Of a stretch of DNA of 64,000 nucleotides, positions 33,734-49,220 are shown piece after piece. The position numbers and the translations under genes are program-made. This stretch comes from an uncultured Chloroflexia bacterium (GTDB lineage Bacteria > Chloroflexota > Limnocylindria > Limnocylindrales > CSP1-4). The notes below the pieces were generated by a model. That model was not told the DNA's origin and ran no database searches. It saw only the letters and a program-made list of their open reading frames with translations. Numbering within the stretch: the stretch's first letter is position 1; every line of letters begins with the position of its first letter. The stretch covers positions 262,285 through 326,284 of the forward strand of contig CAWBQM010000001.1 in NCBI GenBank assembly GCA_963790955.1, in the 5' to 3' direction.

Positions 33734-34138
33734 TTATCGGGCGCTCACCGCCGGGTTGATCGGCTCCAGCACGATGCGATCCCCAACGTGGGTCCGCGTC
33801 GCGGCGATCGTCCCGACCGGGAGCTCGAGACAGCCGTGCGCCCGACGCACGAGCGGCACCAGGCCGCGCCACGCGGGCAGCGCTTCACGCACGGCAACGA
33901 CCTCGCGCGAGCCGTCGGCGCCGTCCGCCCGACCGACGAACACGACGTCGATCGGGAAGCGCATGAACATCATGTGGATGCCGTTCGAGTCGGGCAGCCA
34001 CAGACCGTGGCCGGCGGGCAGCGTCGGCCGGCCCATCAGGCCCATGAACTTGGCCCACAGCGACGCGCCGTTCTCGACCCGCCCGGCGAGCTCCGTCGCG
34101 CGGGTCAGGTTGCGCGCCCGCAGCGACGGCTCAGCCAC
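33734..34138 (-). CDS. DUF192 family protein
   Basis: 'AKFMGLMGR', 'IHMMFMRFPIDVVF', 'LELPVG'. Confidence 0.88.
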   Translation of the reverse strand: MAEPSLRARNLTRATELAGRVENGASLWAKFMGLMGRPTLPAGHGLWLPDSNGIHMMFMRFPIDVVFVGRADGADGSREVVAVREALPAWRGLVPLVRRAHGCLELPVGTIAATRTHVGDRIVLEPINPAVSAR

Positions 34139-34175
34139 CCCTACCGGCGCCCTCGACGAGGTCTTGGTACGTGCC

Positions 34176-35111
34176 TCAGACCTTGAGGTTCTTGACGATC
34201 AGGATGATGGCCGGGCCGAGGATGACGATGAACAGCGACGGGAAGATGCAGCCGACGAGCGGGAACAGCATCTTGATCGGCGCCTTCGCCGCCTGCTCCT
34301 CGGCGCGCTGGCGGCGCTCGATGCGGAGCTGCTCGGACTGGACCTGGAGCACCTTGCTGATCGAGACGCCGAGCTGCTCGGCCTGGATGATCGCGCCGAT
34401 GAAGTTCGTGAGGGCGGGCACCTCGGTGCGCGCGACGATGTCCCGCAGCGCCTCGCGCCGGGCCTTGCCGACCCGCACCTCGGCCAGCGCGCGCCGGAAC
34501 TCCTCGGTCAGCGGTCCCTTGAGCTTCTCGACGACCTTGGCCAGGGCGGCGTCGAAGCCGAGGCCGGCGCGCACGGAGATCGTGAGCAGGTCGAGCGAGT
34601 CCGGGACCATGAGCAGGATCAGGTGCTGGCGCTTGCGGACCCGACCGCCGAGCCAGAACTCCGGGACGGTGTAGCCGAGCATGAGCCCGACGGCGGCCAT
34701 GACGATGCCGATCGTCGGGGGCAGGCCGAGCACGCCGACCACCACGAACAGGAAGAAGAACAGCAGTCCACCGACGACCGCGCCGACGGCCTTGATGCCC
34801 AGCCAGTCGCTGACGCGCATGTCGCCCGGATTGCCGGCGAGCGCGAGTCGCTTCTCGGTCCGCTCCGCGAACGACTGGCTCGTGACGCGTGACACCGTGC
34901 CCGACAGGCGCGCAGCGAGGGGCTTGAGCGTGCGCTCGACGAACGGCGCCTGGAGCTCGAGCTCCTCGAGGTTGCGGGCCTGCATCGACCCGAGCTGACT
35001 CAGGCGCTGCTGGACGGGATCCTGCGGCGAGCTGCCGGAGAGCGACAGGAAGATCAGCAGGATCGCTCCCGCCGCGACGGCCGCGACGAGGATCGGTAGA
35101 AGGTTCTCCAT
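34176..35111 (-). CDS. tadC: Tad pilus platform protein TadC (T2SS F domain)
   Basis: 'PDSLDLLTISVRAGLGFDAAL', 'QAEQLG', 'RRQRAEEQAAKAPIKMLFPL'. Confidence 0.92.
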   Translation of the reverse strand: MENLLPILVAAVAAGAILLIFLSLSGSSPQDPVQQRLSQLGSMQARNLEELELQAPFVERTLKPLAARLSGTVSRVTSQSFAERTEKRLALAGNPGDMRVSDWLGIKAVGAVVGGLLFFFLFVVVGVLGLPPTIGIVMAAVGLMLGYTVPEFWLGGRVRKRQHLILLMVPDSLDLLTISVRAGLGFDAALAKVVEKLKGPLTEEFRRALAEVRVGKARREALRDIVARTEVPALTNFIGAIIQAEQLGVSISKVLQVQSEQLRIERRQRAEEQAAKAPIKMLFPLVGCIFPSLFIVILGPAIILIVKNLKV

Positions 35112-35115
35112 CGGG

Positions 35116-36130
35116 CTAGACCTCGATGTCCACGATCTTGCGGATGAGCATGAAGCCGACGAACATCGCGAAGCCGCCGAAGGCCAGGATGATGATGCCG
35201 GCGGGCAGCCCGCCGATGCTCACCGCGTTGTCGAACATGGGCGCCATGAAGTTGGGTGCGGCGATGAACAGGAACCCGGCCAGGCCGAAGGGCAGCAGGG
35301 CGACCACGTAGCCCGACAGGCGCTGCTGTGCGGTGAGCGTGCGGATCTCGCCCTTGATCCGGACCCGTTCGCGGATGGTGTACGCGATCGAGTCGAGGAT
35401 CTCGGCCAGGTTGCCGCCGACGGTGTGCTGGATGGCGATGGCCGTGGCCATGAGCTCGAGGTCATCCGAGCGGACGCGCCGGACCATGTTCTCGAGCGCG
35501 GTCTCGAACGGCAGGCCCAGGTTCACCTCGCGGATGACGCGGCCGAACTCGGTCGAGACCGGTGGCCGCGACTCGCGCACGACCATCTCGATGGCCTGCA
35601 GGAAGGACGAGCCCGCGCGCAGGGCGTTGGCGATGAGCGTGATCGTGTCCGGCAGCTGCCTTGTTGAACGCATTGAGCCGGGCGCTCTTGCGGCGACCCA
35701 GCCAGAAGCGCGGCAGCATGAAGCCGATGAGTGCGCCGACGAGCCAGATGAGCGGGCTGCTGAATGCGGAGATGACGAAGCCCAGGATGAAGAACAGGAC
35801 CGGGATGCCGACGGTGGCTCCCGCCCAGATCATGAGGTACTCGCTGACCTTGAGCTTGAGATCGGCCCGGGCGAGCTCACGGGCCAGGTTGGCTCCGAAG
35901 TCGCGGCCCTCGACGACCCTGTTCAGGTTGGCCAGGGCCTGGCTCTGGGCGATGAGGTCGCTGATCGGGCCCTGGCTCGCGCCCGCGGCCGCGGCGGCCT
36001 CGGGCTTGCCGGACGCGTAGCGCTCGAGGCGGGCGCTGATCCCCGAGCCGGAGCCGGCCGTGGCGATCCCGACGGCGATCAGCAGGATCGCGAGGGCGGC
36101 GATGCCTGCGATGATGATCGTTGGGTTCAT
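35116..36130 (-). CDS. tadB: Tad pilus platform protein TadB, frameshifted
   Basis: '[18 protein letters not shown]', 'VGGNLAEIL', 'LTAQQRLSG'. Confidence 0.92.
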
Positions 36131-36151
36131 GGCGCGTCTCCCACCGGGGCC

Positions 36152-37552
36152 TCAGTACGAGAAGCCGAAGAGGCCGGGCGGCAGGTGGATGCCCATGACC
36201 TCGAACTTCTCGACGAACTTCGGCCGGATGCCGGTCGGCTTGAGCCGACCCTGGATCTTGCCTTCGATGACGCCCGTCTGCTCGAAGACGAACACATCCT
36301 GCATCACGATGACGTCACCTTCCATGCCCTGGACCTCGGTGATGTTCGTGATCCGCCGGGTGCCGTCCTTGAGGCGGGCCTGGTGGACGATGAGGTCGAC
36401 GGCCGAGGCGACCTGCTCGCGAATGGCGCGCAGCGGCAGGTCGACGCCGGCCATGAGGACCATGGTCTCGAGACGGGACAGCATGTCCCGCGGGCTGTTG
36501 GCGTGGCCTGTCGACATCGAGCCGTCGTGGCCCGTGTTCATGGCCTGAAGCATGTCCAGCGCCTCGCCCGAACGGCACTCGCCGACGATGATGCGATCGG
36601 GCCGCATGCGCAGCGCGTTGCGCACCAGCTCCCGGATCGGGATGGCGCCCTTGCCCTCGATGTTCGGCGGTCGCGACTCGAGCGTCACGACGTGCTCCTG
36701 GCGGAGCTGGAGCTCGGCCGCGTCCTCGATCGTCACGATGCGCTCGTCGTTCGGGATGAACGACGACAGGACGTTGAGGGTCGTGGTCTTGCCCGAGCCG
36801 GTGCCGCCGGACACGAACAGGTTGAGCCTCGCCTCGACGCAGGCCTTGAGGAAATCGAACATGTCGGGCGTCGCGGTGCCGAACCGGATGAGGTCGTCGG
36901 TCGTGTACGGCGAGGCGGCGAACTTCCGGATCGTGATGACCGGGCCAACGAGCGACAGGGGCGGAATGATCGCATTGACGCGCGAGCCGTCGGTCAGTCG
37001 GGCGTCGACCATCGGTGACGACTCGTCCACGCGCCGGCCGATCGGGGCGATGATCCGATCGATGATGCGCATGACGTGGTCGTCGTTCTGGAAGACGACG
37101 TTGGTGAGCTCGAGCTTGCCGGAGCGCTCGATGTAGACCTGGCGGGGGCCGTTGACCATGACCTCGGTGATGCTCTCGTCGCGCAGGAGCGGCTCGAGCG
37201 GGCCCAGGCCGATGATCTCGTCGGTGATCTGCTCCAGCATCCGGACCCGCTCGGCACGGGTCAGGGCGAGGCCTTCCTCGTCGATGACCTTGCCGAAGAT
37301 CTCCTCGATCTGGCGCCGGACCTCGACCTGGTTGGACAGGTCGAGCTTCGGGTCGAGATCCTGGATCACCCGGTTCTGGATCCGGAACTTCACGTCACGG
37401 AAGGATTCCCGGACCGGCGCCGAGCTCATGAGCCGCGGCGCCGCCGGTGCCACACCACCACCGGACGGCGGCGGAACGGCCGGTACGCCGGGCGAAGCCG
37501 GTCCCGGTGCGGCGCCTGGCCGCGCGCTTTCGATTCGCTTGAGCAGGGACAT
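36152..37552 (-). CDS. tadA: CpaF/TadA pilus assembly ATPase
   Basis: 'GLGPLEPLL', 'GGTGSGKTT', 'TIEDAAEL', '[11 protein letters not shown]', 'AMNTGHDGS'. Confidence 0.96.
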
Positions 37553-37587
37553 CGCCTACACCCCTTCAGGCCCCGAGGGGCTCACTG

Positions 37588-38841
37588 CTACCGCCATGCG
37601 AACAGAGACTTGCGGGGCGCCGTCTTTGGAGCATCTTCCCGCTCGGGCGCACTGACGCGCTCGCCGGCGACGGCGGTCGCCAGCCGAAGGATGTCCTGAG
37701 AGACCTGCGCCTCGCGGTTGGAGATGAAGAACGGGACGCCACGGTTGAGGGCGTAGACCACGCTTCGACCGTCGCTCACGATGGTGTGGTTGACCTTGCG
37801 CCCGATCGACTGCTCGACGTCCGCGATACGGATGCCGAGGGCCGAATCGGCCCGGTTGAGGACGAGCTGGACCTTGCTCTGCTCGTAGCCCAGCTGCTCG
37901 GCGACCTCGAGGAACAGCCGCATGTTCTTGATGCTCGTGATCTCGAGGCTGAGCATCGTCAGGATCACGTCGGCCGTGTCGAGGATGGCCAGCGTCGTGT
38001 CGTTGAACTGGCTCGTGCAATCGACGATGACCAGGTCGTGGTCGGCCCGGAGCGCCTCGATGATGCGTTTCACGGCGTTCGTCGTGACCAGCTCGGCCAT
38101 CTCGGGCGACGGCGGCGCGAGGAGCACGCGGACGCCCGAGCTGTGGCTGATGACGAACGTGTCGAGCGATTCCGGCTCGCCGCCGGCCTCGATCTCGGGC
38201 ACGAGGTCCGCGATGGACTTGTTCTTGGGGTTGAGGTTGAGCAGGACGCCGACGTCGCCGAACTGGAACGAGGCATCGACGAGAACGACCTTCTTGCCGA
38301 TCTCCTGCGCCGCGGCGACGGCGAGGTTGACCGCGACCGTCGTCCGGCCCACGCCGCCCTTCGGGCTGAACACGGCCACGACGGTCCCGTCGTACTGGCC
38401 GCCGCCGGCCGCGGCCGAGGGGGCGGTGCTCGCCGGCGCCATGACCATGCGGCTCTGCTTCTCGCGCTCGCGCGAATACACCTGGCGGATCGACGCGGTG
38501 AGCTCGTCCGAGCTGAACGGCTTGACGAGGAACTCGCGTGCGCCCGCGAGCATCGAGCGGCGCAGGTAGTCGGCCTCGCCCTGGACGGACATCATGATGA
38601 CGGACGCGGTCGGGACCCGGGCCGAGAGCTGCTCGGTCGCGGTGATGCCGTCCATGTCCGGCATGTTGATGTCCATCAGGACGACGTCCGGTGTCAGCCG
38701 GGCGGCCATCTCGATCGCCTCCGCACCGGAGGCGGCCGCTCCCGCGACTTCGATGTCGGACTCGAAGCCGAGCAGCTTGCCGAGATGATCCCGGGTCTCC
38801 GGGATGTCGTCGACGATCAGGACGCGGATCTGGTCGGCCAT
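37588..38841 (-). CDS. cpaE: CpaE/TadZ: receiver domain plus MinD/ParA-like ATPase
   Basis: Receiver 'LIVDD...VLMDINMPDMDG...LVKPF'; deviant Walker A 'SPKGGVGRTT'. Confidence 0.9.
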   Translation of the reverse strand: MADQIRVLIVDDIPETRDHLGKLLGFESDIEVAGAAASGAEAIEMAARLTPDVVLMDINMPDMDGITATEQLSARVPTASVIMMSVQGEADYLRRSMLAGAREFLVKPFSSDELTASIRQVYSREREKQSRMVMAPASTAPSAAAGGGQYDGTVVAVFSPKGGVGRTTVAVNLAVAAAQEIGKKVVLVDASFQFGDVGVLLNLNPKNKSIADLVPEIEAGGEPESLDTFVISHSSGVRVLLAPPSPEMAELVTTNAVKRIIEALRADHDLVIVDCTSQFNDTTLAILDTADVILTMLSLEITSIKNMRLFLEVAEQLGYEQSKVQLVLNRADSALGIRIADVEQSIGRKVNHTIVSDGRSVVYALNRGVPFFISNREAQVSQDILRLATAVAGERVSAPEREDAPKTAPRKSLFAWR

Positions 38842-39000
38842 CGTGGGGCTTGTCGTTCCGCTCGTGGTGGGTGGCTCATTGGTTGACGTCCGGGTGCTGC
38901 CGGAGGAGCGGACGGGCGCGTGATCCGGTCGGATCGTCGCGCCCGTCGGGCCGCTGGTCCAGTCTCGTGCCGGGGCTCGCCGGCGTGTGTTTCTGGCTGG

Positions 39001-39909
39001 TTATCGCCTCGCGCCGGCCGGCAGGACGGTCTCGACCAGCTCCGGCGGGAGGACCTTGTAGTCGTCGACGAGCACCTTCAGCGTGATGCCCGTCGTGGTG
39101 TCGGGCGCCGGGATGACCGGGTTGCCCGTCGTCGGGTCGTGGAAATCCTTGGGCGAGCGCAGGGTCAGCGTAATCGAGCCGTCCAACTGCGCGTACTTGA
39201 TGAGCTCGGACTGCTGGGCGGTGACGGCCAGGACGACGATCTCCTGCTGGCCGTTGAGAGCCGTGGTCTGGCCGGTGGTGCCCGATGGCTGTGGCTGTTG
39301 CTGCTGCTCGGCGGTCGTGGTCGGCGGTGGCAGCAGGGTGCCGAGCACCTGTGCGCCCTGGATGAGAACCTTGATGCTGGTGCCATTCAGGCCCGCCACG
39401 GCCTGGATCGAACTGTCGGTCGGGTTGACGGTGACGACCGGGAACTTGTCCCCGGTCAGGCCGAGGACCAGATCGACCCAGTCGCCCGGCTGGATGACGG
39501 TGCCCACGCCCGAGACCTGGTCGACCTGGACCGCGATCCCGCGCAGACCCGCGGGCACGGTCAGGTTCCCGATCTGGCCGGCGCCCGAGCCGAAGTCGCT
39601 GCTGGTCAGCTGCTTACCCTGCTTGACGTCCGCGCGCACCGTCCGGCCGATCAGCAGGGACGTGTCGGCAAACGCGGTGGCGTCACGCGACGTGGGCGGG
39701 ATGTTCTTGATCTCGAGCGAGCTGGCCGCCACTGCCTGGGTGAGCTCTGTCCCGAGCGGGATGTCCGTCTTCGCGAAGACCGCGGGGACGTCCGCGACCT
39801 CGTTGCTGGGACCCGTTGAGGGCTGCTGGCTGACGAGAATGATTCCAACGAACGCGACGACCGCGAGAAAGATCCCAATGAGCAGGATCAGACGATTCGA
39901 CCGCTTCAA
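39001..39909 (-). CDS. cpaB: Flp pilus assembly protein CpaB/RcpC
   Basis: TTG start after GGGAGG; N-terminal TM, SAF domain, 'VPAGLRGIAVQVDQVSGVG..IQPGDWVD', 'ITLTLRS'. Confidence 0.9.
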   Translation of the reverse strand: MKRSNRLILLIGIFLAVVAFVGIILVSQQPSTGPSNEVADVPAVFAKTDIPLGTELTQAVAASSLEIKNIPPTSRDATAFADTSLLIGRTVRADVKQGKQLTSSDFGSGAGQIGNLTVPAGLRGIAVQVDQVSGVGTVIQPGDWVDLVLGLTGDKFPVVTVNPTDSSIQAVAGLNGTSIKVLIQGAQVLGTLLPPPTTTAEQQQQPQPSGTTGQTTALNGQQEIVVLAVTAQQSELIKYAQLDGSITLTLRSPKDFHDPTTGNPVIPAPDTTTGITLKVLVDDYKVLPPELVETVLPAGARR

Positions 39910-39929
39910 GTGATTGGCCTCCCCGAGCC

Positions 39930-39970
39930 GTGTGACAGGTGGCATCACGCGTGTGACAGGTGGCACCACG
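39930..39970. repeat. 21-bp tandem direct repeat just upstream of the cpaB RBS
   Basis: cgtgtgacaggtggcatcacg / cgtgtgacaggtggcaccacg (one mismatch). An extended -10 (TGGTATAGT, minus strand, about 39996-40004) lies further upstream. Confidence 0.8.
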
Positions 39971-40933: not shown

Positions 40934-41104
40934 CTAGACCGAGTGGCCGACGTTGCTCAGGATCTGGCTGACCTGGCCGCCCAGGAAGATGAGGGCGATG
41001 ATCGCGACGATCGCGATGAGGGCGAGGATCAGCGCGTACTCCGCGAGACCCTGGCCTTCCTCGTCCCGACGAAGGGACGAGAGAAGCGTGTTGATGAGCG
41101 CCAT
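40934..41104 (-). CDS. flp: Flp pilin, copy 3
   Basis: MALINTLLSSLRRDEEG-QGLAEY...QVSQILSNVGHSV; two substitutions relative to copies 1 and 2. Confidence 0.93.
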   Translation of the reverse strand: MALINTLLSSLRRDEEGQGLAEYALILALIAIVAIIALIFLGGQVSQILSNVGHSV

Positions 41105-41308
41105 GCGGCTGCCTCCTGGAAGATGAGTACCCACCCCCGGATGAGGGCGCGGCAAAGATAGATGAGGCGCTATGCGATGGCCACTAGCCAGATGGTACCG
41201 GCGCCTGGCGGCCGAGCAGCCATCCCCAACAACGGTCCGGCCGCCCTGTGTTGATTGCGGTGGACTTCCGAGCTTGCCGTCGCGGCGTCCTGGCCGAGTC
41301 GAGCAGAC

Positions 41309-42403
41309 CTACGCGGTGGGCGAGACGATCTCGCCCTGGGCGGGCGTCCTCAGCAAGCCCGGGCCCAGAACGTAGTAGCGACCGCGCTTCTCGCCGGTCG
41401 CCAGCAGCCAGCCGCCCGTCACTGCGGCGTCGAGGTCGCGGGTGGTGCTCTGGGGAGAGCGACCCGTCAGCTCGATGTAGTCGCCGGCTCGTATGTGTCG
41501 ATTGACCCAGGCGTAGGCCAAACCGTCGATCATCGCCGACGGGAGCGATCCATCGGCAATCGCCCGGCGGATCTCGACCATGACTTGGCCGAGACCGCGG
41601 ATCCGCTCCAGGACGTCGTCGGCAGACCGTGTCAGCGAGGTCACGAAGTAACGGGCGAAAGGCGTAGCGTCATATCCGGGGGCGTAGTCCTGGCCCACGG
41701 CAGCGCGAATCGCCGCGAAGTAGGCGGAGCGATCGAGATCGAGCTGGGCATCGAGCGACACCAGGCCGCCGAGGGCGTAGCCGTGCTCAACGAGGATCAG
41801 TCTCGCGATCGCGCGGGCCGTCCGCCCATTGCCATCGTTGAACGGGTGGATCGCGACGAACTCGAGGTGCGCCAGGGCGGCAGCGACCGGAGGAGCATGT
41901 CGCTTGGTCGCTGTCCCAAGCCAGGCCGCGAACTCGTGCATGAGCTCGGGAACGTCGCCGGAGGGTGGCGTGCTGAAGATCGGATTGCCATCGGCGTCCA
42001 CCACACGGTTCTCCCCGCGGCGATACTCCCCGGAGGTGAGGAGCGGACTCTGGTTCCAGAGCACCCGCCGGTGAAGCTCCCTGATGACGGCTTCATCGGG
42101 TACGACGCGACGGGCGGCGAGCTCGTCGGCCAGAATGAGGGCATCCCGCGTGCCGATGATTTCGCGGGCTTCCTTGTTGCTGACCTTCGTCGAACCGTCG
42201 CCCGCAAGCAGTGCCTCGACCTCGACATCAGAGGCTGTGTTCCCCTCGATCCGCGCCGTGCCGCGAATGGTTCGCACCCATGCGCGACGACGCAGCCACC
42301 CCGCGTGGGTGGGGTCGATAGGCAGGTTGTCGAAGAGCCAGCGCCGCTGGTCGAGCTCGACGAGTGGTTTGGTGAGGGCTCGGCCCCGTAGTCGATACCG
42401 CAC
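41309..42403 (-). CDS. Class II Fic protein with C-terminal winged helix
   Basis: Catalytic 'HPFNDGNGRTAR', N-terminal autoinhibitory 'TARIEG', C-terminal 'QSTTRDLDAAVTGGWLLATGEKRGRYY'. GTG 42403 is the probable start. Confidence 0.9.
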   Translation of the reverse strand: MRYRLRGRALTKPLVELDQRRWLFDNLPIDPTHAGWLRRRAWVRTIRGTARIEGNTASDVEVEALLAGDGSTKVSNKEAREIIGTRDALILADELAARRVVPDEAVIRELHRRVLWNQSPLLTSGEYRRGENRVVDADGNPIFSTPPSGDVPELMHEFAAWLGTATKRHAPPVAAALAHLEFVAIHPFNDGNGRTARAIARLILVEHGYALGGLVSLDAQLDLDRSAYFAAIRAAVGQDYAPGYDATPFARYFVTSLTRSADDVLERIRGLGQVMVEIRRAIADGSLPSAMIDGLAYAWVNRHIRAGDYIELTGRSPQSTTRDLDAAVTGGWLLATGEKRGRYYVLGPGLLRTPAQGEIVSPTA

Positions 42404-42534: not shown

Positions 42535-42744
42535 TCAGCGAGTCGCCTGGTCGATCGCGTTGCCGACGAGCTGGAGCGCGTCCGAGACGGCCTGACCGAA
42601 GAACACGAGGATGACCAGGGCCAGGATCGCCGACAGGCCGAGGATGAGCCCGTATTCGACGAGGCCCTGCCCGGCGGCGGCACGACACCTGACGGGATCC
42701 AGACGCCGGTGGAGGGCCGCACGCAGGCCCGCCGCGGCGGGCAT
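42535..42744 (-). CDS. flp: Flp pilin, copy 4 (divergent), translationally coupled to the upstream pseudokinase
   Basis: 'AAG-QGLVEYGLILGLSAILALVILVFFG'; TGATG stop/start overlap at 42742-42746. Confidence 0.85.
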   Translation of the reverse strand: MPAAAGLRAALHRRLDPVRCRAAAGQGLVEYGLILGLSAILALVILVFFGQAVSDALQLVGNAIDQATR

Positions 42745-43929
42745 CAGATCTCCGGCGCCTCCGGGATGTCCGTGACGAGGCGCAGCCCGGCACCCTCGTC
42801 GAGCAGCTCGGCGGACAGCCCCAGGGTGGCCGCCCGGGCTGAGATCTCGCGCCAGACCGGTGGCGGCAGGGTCGCCTGGCTCGCGGAACGCGCCGCCTCC
42901 GCGGCCGCGACGGCGCCGGCGCGACGGTCCTCGATCATGGCGGCGAGGGCCGGTGGCAGATCCTTGTCCGGTGCGGCCACGTCGGGCGGCGCCGGTTGCT
43001 CCTCGACCTCCCGGTACGCGCGGACCTCGCATTCCAGCCGCTCGTCGGCCCAGTCCAGGCGGATCGCCACGCGATCGGGTCGGGCATCGAGATAGGCGGC
43101 CAGCGCCTCGTCGAGGATCCGGAACAGCCCGCTCTCGATCTCCATCGACAGGCGCCGGTCGGAGCCTTGCGACGTGACCTCGACCGGGATCTGGCCGCGC
43201 CGGCCGCGCTCGCGCGCCGAGCGACGGATCGTCGGCACCAGGCCGAGGTCGTCGAGGACCATCGGTCGCACGTCGAAGATGAACGACTTGGTCGCGTCGA
43301 GCGTCTGCTGGACCATCGCGACGAGGAGCTTGATCTCGGCGCGTGCCTGCTCGGCGTCACGACCCAGCATGCGATCCACGATCTCGGCCTGGAGGACGAT
43401 GTTGGTCAGGCTCTGGGCCGGTCCGTCATGCATCGCCCGGGCGATCTCGCGGCGCAGGTCCTCCTGCGCGCCGAGCATGAGGCGCGACACGGACGGTGAA
43501 AGGGGCGCGCCCGGCGCGACCGCGACCGCCGTGCCCGACTCGCCCGGGACCCCGGTGGACGGCCCTTCGGCCTGCCCGGCGGACGCGAGCGCCTCGGCGT
43601 AGCCGGCCAGGCCGTCGCGATAGCGCGCGCAGCGCCCGTTGCTTGCCATCGAGGACGTCGACCTGGGCCTCCATGACCGCGGCCCGGCGGGTGAGCGGGA
43701 CGAGCTGCGCGTTGAGCTCACCGCGTTCGCCCTGGTCGGCGTCCGGCGCGAGCGCTCCCAGCTTCTCGGCGACGGCGGTCCGGCGCGTCTCGTGCCGGGC
43801 CGCCTCCGTGCGAGCCTGTGTGACGAGCATCTCGATCTCGGTCAGCTCCTTGTCGAGCGCCGCGATCTCGTCGGCGAGGCGCACGGCAAGCGCGGGAGGC
43901 GGATCGTCGGCCGAGGGTGGTTCCGTCAC
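42744..43929 (-). CDS. DegS-like HisKA_3 protein with degenerate ATP-binding domain (pseudokinase); one indel near 43630
   Basis: Coiled-coil N-terminus; H-box 'EIARAMHDGPAQSLTN' intact. N-box reads 'LFRILDEALAAYLDA'; DxGxG and G2 motifs are absent. Confidence 0.8.
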
Positions 43930-43972
43930 GGGCTCGCTCGCGGGGTCGCCGGCAGCTGGGGGCCGCGGATCG

Positions 43973-44719
43973 TCAGTCCTCCGGCATTCGGATCCAGCCC
44001 TGGCGCATCGCGTACACCACGGCCTGGGTCCGGTCGTTGACGGACAGCTTGCGGAGGATCGAGCTCATGTGGTTCTTGACCGTCTGCTCGCTGATCGACA
44101 GCGCGTAGGCGACCTGCTTGTTGGTCATGCCCTGGGCGATGTTGTCGAGGATCTCGACCTCGCGCGGCGACAGCGGCGCGAAGATCGGGGCGGCCTCCTG
44201 GCCGTACACCGCCAGCTCGCGGAACTCCTTGAGCACCCGGGACGCGACGGCGGGCTTGGCGAACACCTTGTCGTTGATCAGGTACTCGCCGTTGCTCACT
44301 CGGCGAATGATCGTGACCAGGTCGTCCGGGCCCACGTCCTTGAGGATGAACGCCGCCGCGCCGGCCTTGATCGCGTCGAACAAGGCCTCCTCGTCCTCGC
44401 TGACGGCGAGCACGATGATCCCGGTCGACGGCAGCTCGCGCTTGATGCGCTGCGTCGTTTCGATGCCGCCGGGCTGTGGCAGCGAGAGGTCCATGAGGAT
44501 GATGTCGGGCGACGTCTCGAGCGCCGCGTCGACCGCCGAGCGTGTGTCGTCCGCCTCGCCGACCACGTCGAAGTCCGGCTCGCGCTCCAGGATGTTGCGC
44601 ATGCCGACGCGGAACAGGGCATGGTGGTCGACCAGCAGGATCTTCGTCCGATCATCCACGCCGCGCCGATCCGGACCGCCCCTCCGGCGTTCCGGCCCGC
44701 TGTAGTCCACCGCGCTCAT
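43973..44719 (-). CDS. NarL/DegU-family response regulator (receiver plus LuxR HTH)
   Basis: 'IILMDLSLP', 'FILKD', 'LSPREVEIL...GMTNKQVAYALSISEQTVKNHMSSILRKL'. Confidence 0.93.
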   Translation of the reverse strand: MSAVDYSGPERRRGGPDRRGVDDRTKILLVDHHALFRVGMRNILEREPDFDVVGEADDTRSAVDAALETSPDIILMDLSLPQPGGIETTQRIKRELPSTGIIVLAVSEDEEALFDAIKAGAAAFILKDVGPDDLVTIIRRVSNGEYLINDKVFAKPAVASRVLKEFRELAVYGQEAAPIFAPLSPREVEILDNIAQGMTNKQVAYALSISEQTVKNHMSSILRKLSVNDRTQAVVYAMRQGWIRMPED

Positions 44720-45834
44720 GAGCTCTCCTCACCTCCGGTCGGGATCGCGAGCCACACCACGGTCCCTCCTTCAGGACGCGATCGTACTTCGAAGCGGGCA
44801 CCGATCAACTGCGCCCGTTCCCGCATGAACTGGAGCCCGAAGTTGCGGCGCCCGCGGGCGGCGACCGCACCGATGTCGAATCCACGCCCATCATCGCGGA
44901 CTTCGACGACCCATGCACCGTCTTCCAGCCGCGTCGTGACTCGGACGTGGCTGGCAGCGGCATGCTTGCGCACATTCTGCAGGGCTTCCTGAACGACGCG
45001 CAGGACGACCGTTTGCTCGGCCTCGCTCAAACCGGCGCTCGGCGCCTCGAGCTCGCACTCGATGGGTGTTCCGGTCAGGGCCGACAAATTCGATGCGCTG
45101 TCGCGGATCGCCCCGTCCAGCCCTAGCTCGTCGAGCAGGGGCGGGCGGAGCTGGCTGATGAAGCTGCGCACGTCGCCCAGCTCGCGACGCAGGAGCTCAC
45201 GCAGGAAGCGTAGCTCGGTGCGCGCCAGGCGTCCGTCACGCTCGAGCACGCGCTCGACGTACTCGACCTGGAAGATCGCGTTCGTGAGGGCCTGGGCGGG
45301 TCCGTCGTGGACCTCCTGGGCAAGCCGTGAGCGCTCGCCCTCCTGGGCCTCGACGATGCGCATCTGGATGTCGCCCGGCAGCACGCCGTCGGCCGGATCG
45401 GTGACGAGCGTGGCGTCGCCGCGCTCGAGGAACAGCCACGCACTCTCGAGCGTGCGGTGCGCCAGCTCGAGCTTGGACAGCTCCTGCTGGTGACGCCCGA
45501 GGTCGGCCGACAGCTCGGCCTCGTCGCGGCGCAGCAGCTTGACCCAGGCATCCTCGGCACCGGCTTCGGCCGCGGTCGCCGCGTCGGGTTCCGCGCCGGC
45601 GCGCGCCGGCGGCGATTCGAGCCGGCCGCGCTCCATGCGCTCGAGCTCGTCGCGCACGCTGTGCCAGCGGGCAAGCTCCTCGAGATAGCCCTCGCGATAG
45701 CGCTCGCGAACGGCGCGCAACGTGTTGGCGCTGGAGCCCACGGCCGATTTGGCCTCGGCGTGCAGCACGTCGAACGGCCCGGAGCGTGGGTCCGTGGCGG
45801 CGTGCGGCTCGGTCGCGGCGTGCGGCTCGGTCAT
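44716..45834 (-). CDS. DegS-like cytoplasmic sensor histidine kinase (HisKA_3 plus HATPase_c)
   Basis: 'AQEGERSRLAQEVHDGPAQALTN', 'QEALQNVRKHA', 'DDGRGFD', 'FGLQFMRERA'; no TM; ATGA overlap with the regulator. Confidence 0.92.
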   Translation of the reverse strand: MTEPHAATEPHAATDPRSGPFDVLHAEAKSAVGSSANTLRAVRERYREGYLEELARWHSVRDELERMERGRLESPPARAGAEPDAATAAEAGAEDAWVKLLRRDEAELSADLGRHQQELSKLELAHRTLESAWLFLERGDATLVTDPADGVLPGDIQMRIVEAQEGERSRLAQEVHDGPAQALTNAIFQVEYVERVLERDGRLARTELRFLRELLRRELGDVRSFISQLRPPLLDELGLDGAIRDSASNLSALTGTPIECELEAPSAGLSEAEQTVVLRVVQEALQNVRKHAAASHVRVTTRLEDGAWVVEVRDDGRGFDIGAVAARGRRNFGLQFMRERAQLIGARFEVRSRPEGGTVVWLAIPTGGEESS

Positions 45835-45896: not shown

Positions 45897-47561
45897 TCAC
45901 GGACATGCGATGTCCCACACGCGGACGTCGGCGATCGCCTCGCGCTCGGTCGCGTCGCTCGGCTGGGGCAGGGCCACGGGCCGGAAGCAGGCGGCCTTGG
46001 CCGTGTCGGTCTGTAGGATCGCGGGCCAGCGGCCTCGCTCGGGCGACAGCAGCACGAGCAGATGGGCGCCGAATCGATCCGCGAGGTCGGCGACGTTCGC
46101 GGGCGGCTCGTTCGGGAGCGCGAGCGCCGGCTGGCGCTCTGCCTCGGCCATCCAGATCGGGAAGTCCGTGATGACCGGCGTCCGACCGTCGAGCGGATGG
46201 CCCGCGTCGGCGAGCGCGGAGCGAAGAACCCGGTATTGCGTCGCCGCCGCCTGCGAACCGCCGCCGAAGCTGGGCAGGAGCGCGACCGAGAACAGCAGCG
46301 AGCCGAAGATCGCCAGTGCCGGCCCGAGCCAGGCGACCGGCCGGGTCCAGCCCCGACGCCGGCCCACCGCGCCGATGAGCCGGTCCAGGGCCAGCAGGCA
46401 GCTCACGACGAGGAGCACGTGCACGGGGCCCGCCGCGTGGAGGAACGTGCCCCACGTCGTCGCGACCGGGAACAGAAGCGTGGTCGCGATGAACGTGACC
46501 AGCGAGAACACGAGCAGCGGCCGGAGCGTGCGCCCGCGGGCCGTCCAGGGCAGCGCCACGAGCCCGATCACGGATACCGGCAGGCCCAGGAACAGGAGCA
46601 CGTTGAGCAGGTTGTGCACGAGGCCGTCGACCCTGCTGCCGACGATGAAGCCCGGACCCTGGGCGAGGTAGCGCGACAGCGTCGGTGGATCGAGGTACGC
46701 GAAGATGTCGAAGCCGGTCACGGACAGCGCGTTCGCGGCGGCCTGACCGGGCAGCGGGCTGCCGAAGACGGCCCAATCGCGCACGGCCCACGGTGCGAAG
46801 ACCGCGACGGCGACGATGCCCGGCACGGCGATGGCGGCGATGCGCCGCCCGACAGACCCGATTCCTCCGCGCAGGGCGGGCGCGGTCCAGGCCACGAACG
46901 CCCATGTCAGGCCAAGCCACGCGGCCTCGTTCCGGGTCAGCGCGGCGAGGCCGATGACGAGACCCAGGCCCAGCAACCGGGGATCGCGGACGGCCGACGC
47001 CGCGGGCGCCCGGGCCACGCGAACCATGAGCAGGCAGGCCGCGAGGGCCAGGACGGCGAACGGCATCGTGGAATCGGGTAGGGCGGACAGGAGCAGGAGC
47101 GGCAGGTACAGGGCCGTCGTCAATCCGGCACCGAGCGCGAGGGTCCGCGCGCGGCCGAGCGACAGGTGAAGCTCGGCGGCCACGTCCGCGGCCAGGCGCC
47201 AGGCGAGGACCGGCACGAGCGCGCCGACGAGGACGCTCTCGATCTGCGCCGCCCGGAAGACACCCGCGAGGTCGTCGTGGCCGAACGGGCCCAGTAGCGC
47301 GATGGGGACCGCGGCCAGCAGGGATGGCAGCGGCAGCCACACCTCGAACGCCGGTCGGGGGAAGACGAGCGGCGGCGTCTGGTAGCTCCACAGCGCGTCG
47401 GACACCAGGCCGCGACCCTCGACGAGGTTGCGCGCCACGCCGACGTAGTACGCGGTGTCCTCGGGTTGCGGGAAGACGATCGCCTGGGCGACCATCGCGC
47501 GCGCGACGAGCGCGACGACGAAGATGGCCACGGCGCTCAGCCAGGCCTCGCGGCGGGTCAT
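45897..47561 (-). CDS. ArnT/PMT-like GT-C membrane glycosyltransferase
   Basis: 'PQPEDTAYYVGVARNLVEGRG', 'WLPLPS', 'LPDSTMPF', 'LTRNEA'; many TM helices. Confidence 0.78.
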   Translation of the reverse strand: MTRREAWLSAVAIFVVALVARAMVAQAIVFPQPEDTAYYVGVARNLVEGRGLVSDALWSYQTPPLVFPRPAFEVWLPLPSLLAAVPIALLGPFGHDDLAGVFRAAQIESVLVGALVPVLAWRLAADVAAELHLSLGRARTLALGAGLTTALYLPLLLLSALPDSTMPFAVLALAACLLMVRVARAPAASAVRDPRLLGLGLVIGLAALTRNEAAWLGLTWAFVAWTAPALRGGIGSVGRRIAAIAVPGIVAVAVFAPWAVRDWAVFGSPLPGQAAANALSVTGFDIFAYLDPPTLSRYLAQGPGFIVGSRVDGLVHNLLNVLLFLGLPVSVIGLVALPWTARGRTLRPLLVFSLVTFIATTLLFPVATTWGTFLHAAGPVHVLLVVSCLLALDRLIGAVGRRRGWTRPVAWLGPALAIFGSLLFSVALLPSFGGGSQAAATQYRVLRSALADAGHPLDGRTPVITDFPIWMAEAERQPALALPNEPPANVADLADRFGAHLLVLLSPERGRWPAILQTDTAKAACFRPVALPQPSDATEREAIADVRVWDIACP

Positions 47562-49220
47562 GGGCTCGACGCCGAGGACGCCGTGCAGCGGGCGTCGTCG
47601 GACGAGATGCAGACCGGATAGAGGCCGACCCGCACGGCCGAGGCCGATGCACCGGTCTCCGGGTCGACCGGCTCGGCCCAGACCGGCGGCCCGATCCACG
47701 CCGGCCGATCGCCGTCGAGCACCGGCCCGACTGCCGGCACGCCGTCGTCGCGCTCGAGGACGAGCCAGCGGATGTCGTACGCGCGCGACGACCTGCTCGA
47801 TCGTGTCGAGCGGATCGTTCACGAGCACCACGCCCGGATGGCCGGTCCAGTATTTCGTGCCCGACGCGTCGATCGACATCACGCGCTCGTCCGGCGCGGC
47901 ACCGGCGGCGCCGAGCGCGGCCGCCACGGACTCGAAGCGATCGCGCGTGGCCGACCACGTCGCATGGACCGACAGCGTGGCGGCAACGGCGACCGCGGCA
48001 AGGAACGCGATCGTGCCCCCGGCAAACGCGCGCCCGGCCTGGTCGGCCTGCCACGTCCGCCGGCGGGCCGCGATCCAGGCGGTGGCCGCGAACACGCCCT
48101 CCAGGCCCAGCACGTAGCCGTGCGGCGCGAGGGCGACCGCCGAATGGATGAACGTGCCGCCCGGGACGTGGACCGCGGAAACGATCGCCGAGAACGCGAA
48201 CAGGATGACCGCGTACGTGAGATACGGTCCGAAGTCGCGCGAGCGTCGCCGACGCCACGCCCCGATGAGCATGAACGGCACGAGGACGACGCCGCCGACG
48301 AGCACGGAGAAGATGACGATCGCCGAGACGAGGCCGTCGACCCGGCTCGCGAGCAGCGGGCCGATGCCCTGGCCCAGCAGCCAGTCGAGGTTGGCCGGCG
48401 TGGAGATGCTGTTCCATTCGCCGATGTTGCGGATGAAGAGGACCTTGCCCGAGGCGGTCGACGGGCTGAGCGAGCCGAACACGGACAGCTGCCGGGCGAA
48501 CCACGGCGAGACAACGACGAGCGAACAGCGCCGGCGCAGGCGACCGCGCTCCAGAGCGGGATGGCCGGCCGCCGACCGCCACCGGAGCGCCACGCATGCC
48601 AGCGATCCCACACGAACGTCAGCCCCAGCACGCCACCGACGAGCACGCCGTCGTTGCGCGACAGGGTCGCCAGGCCCACGAGGAGCCCGGCCACGGCAAA
48701 GCCCCGCGCGTCGCCCCGCAGCCCGCGGGCGCCCAGCCACAGCGCGGCCGCCACGAGCGGCTCGTACAGCCCGAAGTTGTCCGGCTGGGACAGGAACGGC
48801 GTGACCGCGGCCGGGATCGCCGCGAGGATGCCCGCGCCGACGGCCACGAACGGCCGCGCACCCGCGTCGCGGCCGATCGCCCAGGCCAGGGGTGCCACGA
48901 GGGCACCGCTCAGCGCGAACGGCAGATCCGCGATCAGCTGGCTGCCGCCGGAGATCGCCAGGAACGGCACCTGGATGATCGACGCCAGGGGCATCCAGTG
49001 CGCGTTCGAGGGAATCGGCAGGACCGGGTTCGGCGGGGATCCGGCCGCCGACCTCGGCGAAGATCCAGACCAGATCGATGTTGAAGCCGTGGCCGGCCTG
49101 GAGCGATCGCGCGACGTCGGCGTAGTAGAAGGAATCGGGGTAGGCCGGGTCCGGGAAGTGGGCGGCCACGACGACCCGGACGACGAGGGCGAGCCCGTAC
49201 AAGAGCAGCGGGGTCCACAC
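47558..49220 (-). CDS. ArnT/PMT-like GT-C glycosyltransferase, paralogue of the downstream gene; frameshifted
   Basis: 'PAYPDSFYYADVARSLQAGHG', 'WMPLAS', 'QPDNFG', 'LSRNDG'; ATGA overlap with the next gene. Confidence 0.78.

Follow-up and report, generated by a model that had tools for sequence, protein, structure and literature searches.

We detected, in a 64,000-nt stretch of DNA from an uncultured Limnocylindrales bacterium of the Chloroflexota (the window, to which all coordinates refer), a kinase-like protein that has lost the ATP-binding motifs of its ancestors but retains the phospho-accepting His, and that is encoded directly upstream of the pilins of a Tad/Flp (type IVc) pilus locus. 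This pseudo-histidine kinase (psHK) follows an intact histidine kinase (HK1) and a response regulator (RR) on the minus strand, and belongs to a family kept under purifying selection. Because the ATP-binding motifs are lost and the protein is nevertheless maintained by selection, psHK is probably not a source of phosphate but a protein that removes it or passes it on. As the window is about 70% G+C, raw lists of open reading frames (ORFs) were noisy; coding frames were chosen with a filter on the G+C content of third codon positions (GC3), the frame plot and the translations. The genes of the trio, and the pilin gene that follows them, are the following.

44716..45834, minus strand: HK1, soluble histidine kinase with HisKA_3 and HATPase_c domains, 372 aa
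43973..44719, minus strand: RR, NarL/DegU-type response regulator with a receiver (REC) and a GerE helix-turn-helix (HTH) domain according to Pfam, 248 aa
42744..43929, minus strand: psHK, whole gene from GTG to stop, with HisKA_3 as its only Pfam match
43630..43929, minus strand: N-terminal part of psHK, a DegS-like helical hairpin, from the GTG start at 43929 in frame 0 (GC3 plot, N-termini of homologues)
43621..43632, minus strand: frame break of psHK inside ctgCGCGCGCta, one surplus base
42744..43628, minus strand: part of psHK with the dimerization and histidine phosphotransfer (DHp) domain and a domain resembling the catalytic and ATP-binding (CA) domain (Pfam HisKA_3, AlphaFold2 (AF2), Foldseek)
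42535..42744, minus strand: Flp4, divergent Flp-type pilin with the motif GQGLVEYGLIL and a weak Pfam Flp_Fap match

The original prediction, made by reading the letters alone, had described here a kinase with intact H, N, G1 and G2 boxes, a DegU-like regulator and a second kinase-like protein, and both the Pfam matches and the motifs agree with that description. HK1 matches HisKA_3 (residues 167-233, E 3.7e-14) and HATPase_c (residues 277-366, E 3.5e-14), and its H, N, G1 and G2 boxes are all legible (QEALQNVRKHA, DDGRGF, FGLQFMRERA); an alternative ATG start at 45906 would add 24 aa. psHK matches HisKA_3 (PF07730, E 1.2e-12), and HATPase_c gave no Pfam match in it even at E<=10. The His codon of psHK (43430-43428) lies in MHDGPAQSLTN, the N box is reduced to DEALAAYLDAR (about 43112-43080) at the place of QEALQNVRKHA in HK1, a conserved helix, DLPPALAAMIEDRR (about 42962-42921), takes the place of the ATP lid, and WREISARA remains of the G2 box (about 42854-42831; the window reads PVWREISARA). 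The loss of the ATP-binding motifs that had been noted for this one copy holds family-wide. The N box reads ESGLFRxxDEAxAAYL and lacks the Asn, G1 is a variable Pro/Ala-rich loop, the lid is a conserved helix, DLPPALAAMxEDRR, with an insertion of roughly 20 aa, and G2 reads (P)xxWREIxxRA. The N, G1 and G2 boxes were absent from every psHK member aligned (103-112 members), as well as in an explicit alignment against active kinases, and MHDGPAQSLTNI was essentially invariant in alignments of 40, 103 and 112 members. Both kinases are cytoplasmic, as had been proposed: no transmembrane segment was found in HK1 or psHK, with maximum KD19 values of 0.5-1.1 vs 2.9-3.2 in Flp and TadC controls. BLASTP aligns psHK with HK1 significantly (E 3e-19; 36% in 126 aa) only between the DHp domain and the point where the N box begins, and their colinearity past the N box is based on the multiple alignment and the predicted structure.

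The proposed architecture of a DHp domain followed by a dead CA domain is supported by structure prediction, because the AF2 models and their Foldseek matches keep the kinase CA fold. The model of a full-length psHK homologue (103 sequences, pLDDT 82.6) contains a long hairpin of helices at residues 18-124, the DHp hairpin at 151-231 and, at 236-398, an alpha/beta domain, and the model of the window's own C-terminal frame (pLDDT 85.8) again contains the DHp hairpin and the alpha/beta domain; the CA-like domain is modelled with pLDDT >90. When the psHK models were compared with the PDB, Foldseek placed DesK cytoplasmic regions first (E 1.6e-07; DesKC 3ehf_D with TMt 0.67 and a root-mean-square deviation of 4.8 A), and further matches were the isolated CA domain of VraS (4gt8, TMt 0.70) and the pseudokinase DivL (4q20). 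Neither ChpT nor Spo0B was among the top 50 Foldseek matches, the top ones being DesK, other true kinases and DivL, and a family-profile search of PDB sequences matched only the DHp domain of DesK, with no match for the C-terminal domain. The C-terminal domain is thus predicted to keep the CA (Bergerat-type alpha/beta) fold, and psHK would combine a DHp His with a CA-like domain unable to bind ATP.

The features by which the original prediction proposed to tell a working protein from a decaying duplicate, i.e., a conserved His, consistent loss of the N and G boxes, linkage to tad genes and the absence of relaxed selection, were all observed among the relatives. A word-indexed search, which scored the 8000 candidates with the most words in common and no others, gave at least 3892 psHK relatives at E<=0.001, and the best 120 all carry PF07730 only; an exhaustive search gave about 130 clusters (50% identity) at E<1e-30. 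The family was found in 531 GTDB species genomes, and all 80 loci listed come from metagenome-assembled genomes (MAGs) of Limnocylindria/Chloroflexota. In a set of 91 orthologous loci (11 + 80), the His, the Asp at +1 and the Gln at +5 (HDGPAQ) are each present in 91/91 and the DHp alpha1 helix is nearly invariant. Even the most divergent psHK examined (P0212, 40% identity) is still a pseudokinase. The dN/dS analysis was restricted to 9 close pairs (dS 0.22-0.44); values for all pairs (0.15-0.55) are inflated, since at roughly 90% GC3 dS reaches saturation at about 0.7-0.9. For the 9 pairs, dN/dS was 0.15 in the N-terminal coil of psHK, 0.036 in its DHp domain and 0.107 in its CA-like domain, with 0.139 for HK1 (DHp and CA) and 0.007 for the RR. 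psHK is under purifying selection at least as strong as that on HK1.

The linkage to the pilus genes is equally constant. The order HK1-RR-psHK-Flp4-Flp1(xn)-CpaB-CpaE(REC)-CpaF-TadB-TadC-DUF192 was found by tblastn with the window proteins in 91/91 related loci as far as their flanks reach, with 1-5 Flp1-type copies per locus. A Flp4-type gene follows psHK in most of these loci, and the Flp start lies <=30 nt from the psHK stop in at least 49/86 of them. As had been read from the letters, the psHK stop overlaps the Flp start in the window, where the two share one base (TGATG at 42746-42742), and the psHK-Flp4 pair is translationally coupled; the HK1 stop likewise overlaps the RR start (ATGA). 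The selection, the invariance and the synteny together rule out psHK as a decaying duplicate. Apparent losses of psHK in four genomes of the same family were rejected, since they correspond to contig breaks (G002, G006) or incomplete MAGs (G011, G019). Neither psHK nor CpaF is present in a sister family whose genomes measure 1.0-1.4 Mb. The rest of the pilus locus of the window, which follows Flp4, consists of the following features.

41309..42400, minus strand: Fic/DOC-family gene (Pfam Fic, E 7e-18)
41104..41199, minus strand: promoter-like region and 5' untranslated region (UTR) of the first Flp1-type pilin gene (conserved sequence)
41103-40934, 40858-40673 and 40443-40273, minus strand: three Flp1-type pilin genes (translations; Pfam Flp_Fap, E 5.4e-05, under the gathering score)
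39001..39969, minus strand: CpaB/RcpC (Pfam RcpC, E 3.5e-14, and SAF)
37588..38841, minus strand: CpaE/TadZ-type ATPase with an N-terminal receiver (Pfam Response_reg, E 8.2e-29, and AAA_31/CbiA)
36152-37552, minus strand: CpaF/TadA ATPase (Pfam T2SSE, E 7.4e-64)
35116 to about 36073, minus strand: TadB, with a frame break near 35660-35700 (Pfam T2SSF)
34176-35111, minus strand: TadC (Pfam T2SSF)
33734-39969, minus strand: block from CpaB to DUF192 (Pfam scan)

Thus, the minus-strand order in the window is HK1, RR, psHK, Flp4, Fic, three Flp1-type pilins, CpaB, REC-CpaE, CpaF, TadB, TadC and DUF192, and Pfam recognizes a Tad/Flp pilus set comprising Flp pilins, CpaB/RcpC, CpaE/TadZ, CpaF/TadA, TadB and TadC. 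The Flp genes carry G-x-x-x-x-EY motifs, and their Flp_Fap scores fall below the gathering threshold. The receiver-bearing CpaE that had been noticed near the trio has a full REC domain, in which DD11-12, D57, S85 and K107 are invariant (62-64 orthologues).

To trace the origin of psHK, we searched the Chloroflexota phylum-wide and obtained a bimodal result. Members of one family (f1) match over the full length (E 1e-62 to 1e-118), and many other Chloroflexota families match at about 1e-31 to 1e-41 over the N-terminal coil, the DHp domain and the start of the CA domain (residues 18-310), in open frames of about 370 aa. In the latter proteins, here called HK2, the N, G1 and G2 boxes are intact and the H-box is nearly that of psHK, and the motif FIFDxRPMxLDDLGL is nearly identical in psHK and the active HK2 kinases. 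At the junction of DHp alpha2 and the CA-like domain (about 43220-43190 in the window), psHK has a strongly basic linker with a near-invariant RRxARERGRRAG, and active HK2 kinases have a neutral linker at that place, e.g., RRYIQTFQDNSG. HK2 genes occupy the same tad-adjacent slot in other families, as RR-HK2 (L103, L104), as HK2-Flp(n) (L106-L108), as HK2-CpaB-CpaE-CpaF with no DegU-like RR within 9 kb (L110), or as HK1like-RR-HK2 before CpaE-CpaF-TadBC with both kinases active (L105). In a maximum-likelihood tree, psHK forms one clade (100/100) on a long stem, nested in active HK2/DegS-like kinases and sister to the active P0241 (95/92), and HK1 and the HK1-like kinase of L105 form a separate clade (100/98). 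Since psHK nests in the active HK2 clade, apart from HK1, the duplication that gave HK1 and HK2 is ancient, and catalysis was lost a single time, in the tad-adjacent copy, at the base of the Limnocylindrales family carrying psHK. The tree and the HK2 orthologues elsewhere rule out that psHK is a recent tandem duplicate of HK1.

The original prediction had presented the two flanking kinases as DegS-like paralogues. This holds in so far as psHK falls in a DegS-like clade, its descent from DegS-type kinases being borne out by the tree placement and the soluble architecture. psHK is not a tandem duplicate of HK1, and it gives no match to the Pfam DegS domain. The N-terminal DegS domain (PF05384) was not matched in HK1, in psHK (P0007, P0094) or in the N-terminal piece of the window's psHK; the related active kinases P0254, P0258 and P0261 (the HK2 of L105) pass its cut-off. 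The closest active relative of the psHK clade, the metagenome protein P0241, has weakened boxes, with QGVLSN (Glu->Gly) and ENDAKG for DxGxG, HATPase_c still being found (E 7.7e-10), and may represent an intermediate toward the pseudokinase. In another Chloroflexota family (L109; G237:C5, 10689-11300, minus strand), the upstream HK1-like paralogue is degenerate, with LSDGPGQ for HDGPAQ and no N-box Asn, and HK2 is intact, which is the reciprocal outcome of the kinase-RR-kinase trio. The same slot thus holds an active HK2 alone, HK1 with an active HK2 or HK1 with a dead HK2, and in one lineage it is the other paralogue that is dead. This series makes it testable how a bifunctional kinase splits into a kinase and an ATP-independent partner.

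The window copy of psHK differs from its relatives in one respect. The original prediction had psHK align colinearly to its C-terminus without a frameshift, which stands from the DHp domain onward; the N-terminal coil lies in another frame, with the break at about 43629. In the GC3 plot, frame 0 is the coding frame between about 43930 and about 43690, after which coding moves to frame 2. Frame 0, from the GTG at 43929, reads VTEPPSADD...LADEIAALDKELTEIEMLVTQARTEAARHE...VDVLDGKQRAL, i.e., the N-terminal coiled coil, which in full-length homologues (about 400-413 aa) is in frame with the rest (...VDVLEGKRRALGRYRDALA...; VDVLDGKQRALxRYRD). The switch falls within ctgCGCGCGCta (43632-43621), a CGCGCGC run, and tblastn with the proteins of relatives crosses the window psHK in fr-2 and then fr-3. 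One surplus base is present, as the gene (43929..42744) has 1186 nt, i.e., 3x395+1, and the ...QRAL-x-RYRD... spacing is fixed in homologues. psHK is a single ORF in 91/91 relatives, so that the window copy is the sole broken one of 92. Other frame breaks relative to orthologues were seen in TadB (about 35660-35700) and in upstream GT-C-like membrane glycosyltransferase-like gene(s) (about three: about 47785, about 48540 and about 49030-49057); counting the one in psHK, conserved genes of the window have at least 5 breaks over about 17 kb. Because other conserved genes of the window break frame too, we consider it very likely that the break in psHK is an assembly indel and not biology. It is improbable that psHK is a true pseudogene in this genome, with a real frame break and only a 5'-truncated product or none. 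The break does stand in the deposited sequence, in one of 92 copies, and the same genome has an RR variant (VDHH) and a Fic insertion in the pilin array, as if the locus could be decaying. On the other hand, the sequence past the break is fully conserved, with GC3 of about 0.9 and a fold predicted at pLDDT 85.8, TadB and an unrelated nearby membrane-protein gene are broken as well, the break lies in a (GC)n run of a 10-contig MAG with 53% completeness, and the relatives include many long-read MAGs with split matches.

The RR between the two kinases belongs to the NarL/DegU type by its Pfam matches (Response_reg, E 4.7e-24; GerE, E 1.4e-22), NarL and NarP being its top NCBIfam matches, and is 84-91% identical to the copies of its relatives. 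Its phospho-Asp is invariant (84/84 orthologues). At the second Asp of the acidic pocket, the window RR has a His, reading VDHH (D-H-H codons 44636-44628) where 75/84 orthologues read VDDH, and the remaining 9/84 have a non-Asp residue (G, N, S...) at this position. Judged by eye, the conserved Thr/Ser switch position of the RR seems to hold an Ala in 83/84. A possible target of this DegU-like regulator is the conserved promoter-like region before the first Flp1-type pilin (41104-41199, minus strand), where a GGTACCATCTGGCTAGTGG box, GGTACCATC-N-CTAGTG, a -10-like TATAGT/TATCTT, a UTR hairpin, GGTACTCATCTTCCAGGAGG and GTACTCATC..CCAGGAGG were found. In 46/84 loci the consensus CgGTACCATCgtcctAGTg...TAtagTG...CCCtc lies at the corresponding position, with a chance expectation of about 2% per 110 nt, and upstream of HK1 it occurs in 3/68 loci only. 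The search for regulator sites yielded this one conserved box at the main pilin promoter, and nothing in it links the box to the RR. A promoter and terminator scan of 6.4 kb of the locus gave a single sigma-70-like match (42453->42426), just upstream of Fic. The Fic gene between Flp4 and the Flp1-type pilins occurs in the window only, and is a recent insertion into the pilin array, since it is absent from all 91 related loci.

For the trio as a whole we propose a theoretical scheme in which HK1, as the only ATP-using kinase, would supply the phosphate, and the RR would be the transcriptional output, with RR~P driving the downstream pilin promoter(s). psHK would be unable to autophosphorylate but would still dock a receiver through its DHp domain, and would set the level of RR~P without ATP, either as a signal-regulated phosphatase, with Gln+5 positioning a water molecule, or by reversible back-transfer onto its His. 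We give about an even chance to this reading, in which HK1 is the phosphate source and psHK acts on the adjacent RR, without ATP, as a phosphatase under signal control or as a reversible sink for phosphate. psHK retains the N-terminal helical hairpin, a near-frozen DHp helix and the H-D-x-x-x-Q phosphatase motif, and DxxxQ is required for HisKA_3 phosphatase activity, as established for NarX and DesK (PMC3510030; PMC5231405). Q+5 of psHK corresponds to Gln193 of DesK, which places the water, and its T+8 and L+12 to Ser196 and Leu200, with which DesK contacts DesR (PMC5231405). Used as a guide to the partner receiver, the DHp residues suggest the RR-linked HK2 type, and the adjacent RR is the most likely partner because the contact positions +8 T and +12 L match those of RR-linked active HK2 kinases. 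The DHp helix of psHK, alpha1 of the RR and alpha1 of the CpaE receiver show too little variation for a covariation analysis.

Several points weigh against assigning psHK to the control of RR~P. We infer its activity, its partner and the direction of phosphate flow from sequence, and this organism may truly carry the frame break. HK1 also keeps HDGPAQ, so that a separate phosphatase is not strictly needed, and because the DHp helix is frozen over its entire length, an unvarying His does not by itself separate phosphotransfer, phosphatase activity and pure binding. The newly conserved features of psHK (the RRxxRERGRR linker, the LPPALAAM helix and WREI) hint at a function absent in the ancestor, and those of the CA-like domain are left unexplained by the phosphatase, relay and heterodimer readings alike. 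Finally, CpaE may still be a partner, since some active HK2 kinases have no DegU-like RR and their only local receiver is that of CpaE (L110).

A rival reading, which follows the ChpT/Spo0B analogy of the original prediction, is a forward phosphorelay. The CpaE/TadZ receiver would then be phosphorylated by psHK~P, itself loaded in trans by the CA domain of HK1 or with phosphate from RR~P, and one signal would switch both pilin transcription (via the RR) and pilus assembly (via CpaE). We regard such a relay as unlikely. The psHK His is invariant, the CpaE receiver has every phospho-acceptor residue and no kinase of its own, psHK and REC-CpaE always occur together in one operon, and the active HK2 of L110 stands directly before cpaB-cpaE(REC)-cpaF. 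Degenerate kinases have also turned into phosphotransferases elsewhere, as in ChpT, Spo0B and PhyT (PMC5898713). However, the contact residues of psHK match RR-linked HK2 kinases (LTN...L12) and not the orphan flp-adjacent ones (MSN/MAN), the known dimeric phosphotransferases are fed by a stand-alone receiver or by that of a hybrid kinase, neither of which is present here, and the likeness of psHK to ChpT and Spo0B is that of a generic kinase fold only. A little less probable still is the more specific version in which psHK would be a HisKA_3/DegS-derived phosphotransferase to CpaE/TadZ, i.e., an independent ChpT-like relay with the LPPALAAM helix and the basic RRxxRERGRR linker as a new docking surface; a cytoplasmic signal would in that case couple pilin transcription to pilus assembly through psHK and CpaE/TadZ. 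We also doubt that psHK acts as a heterodimeric modulator, in which a psHK:HK1 DHp heterodimer with one working CA domain would tune the kinase/phosphatase balance of HK1 according to the signal at the psHK N-terminus. HK1 and psHK are both soluble coiled-coil HisKA_3 proteins of one operon, and the paralogues ChrS and HrrS heterodimerize, the CA-dead ChrS altering the signalling output (PMC9491836). Against this, HK1 and psHK are ancient paralogues whose duplication is older than the loss of catalysis, both being active in L105, and their DHp helices differ at the family-fixed positions +10, +12, +14, +16, +39, +51, +53 and +56. Such fixed DHp differences are the usual signature of paralogues insulated from cross-dimerization. 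A small remaining probability goes to some other function of the family. The original prediction had offered an independently evolved HisKA_3-type phosphotransferase, phosphatase or heterodimeric modulator; the separate HisKA_3 origin is borne out by the tree, and the three options are inseparable by sequence.

Overall, the family is carried by hundreds of species from a class that is abundant in soil and freshwater and uncultured, in which it probably governs when the cells make adhesive or DNA-uptake pili. As HK1, psHK, the RR and the CpaE receiver are small and soluble, the mechanism is open to ordinary biochemistry. At another locus, several members of the family carry a second CpaF paralogue (62-72% identity; L096/L100 in G011, L098 in G001, L101 in G006); next to these paralogues we detected neither a psHK like that of the window nor a pilin or any further tad gene, and in L101 an unrelated histidine kinase-RR pair lies about 10 kb away.

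The arrangement had been thought to lack an earlier description, and the literature searched indeed contained no natural, conserved HisKA_3/DegS-type family of His-keeping pseudokinases, no Tad-pilus regulation in Chloroflexota and no paper linking Limnocylindria with pili. The split kinase of M. tuberculosis (Rv0600c/Rv0601c-TcrA), mentioned in a review as two kinases with one regulator, was not used as a precedent. A two-component control of Flp (type IVb/c) pilus genes is known from the tad/flp locus of P. aeruginosa, where PprA-PprB differs from the present system in its kinase family and phylum and has no pseudokinase partner. The DegS-DegU system of B. subtilis resembles psHK and HK2 in having a soluble kinase with an N-terminal helical domain and HisKA_3, and a NarL-family REC-HTH partner. 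Compared with DegS and the active HK2 kinases, psHK lacks the N-box Asn, DxGxG, G2 and any HATPase_c match and has a lid insertion, and, unlike in DegS, the Pfam DegS domain is undetected in the two proteins of the window. DesK of the B. subtilis DesK-DesR system is the best structural match of both psHK models and the best PDB sequence match (DHp only), but it senses temperature in the membrane and its ATP site is functional.

A CA-dead HisKA_3 kinase that acts together with a paralogous kinase on one shared regulator is also known from C. glutamicum, where ChrS_CA-fs acts with HrrS (PMC9491836). That variant, however, arose by a frameshift in laboratory evolution and concerns membrane sensors, whereas psHK is natural, has a remodelled CA domain and occurs across hundreds of species. 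DivL of Caulobacter, one of the Foldseek matches, is likewise a kinase-fold pseudokinase turned signalling adaptor, but it has lost the His (to Tyr) and keeps its CA domain as a sensor, while psHK keeps the His and has lost the ATP site. A small number of His-carrying, kinase-derived pseudokinases are already known, and they belong to DHp families other than that of psHK (ChpT, Spo0B, PhyT). Like psHK, ChpT of Caulobacter, Spo0B of Bacillus and PhyT/PhyP of Sphingomonas combine a DHp His with a degenerate, non-ATP-binding CA-like domain, and PhyT was reportedly first taken for a phosphatase and later recognized as a bifunctional phosphotransferase (PMC5898713; PMC3433190). In contrast to these proteins, psHK arose independently, within the HisKA_3/DegS lineage, has no stand-alone or hybrid receiver that would feed it, and has a role that we infer; its resemblance to ChpT and Spo0B is one of analogy, not of descent.

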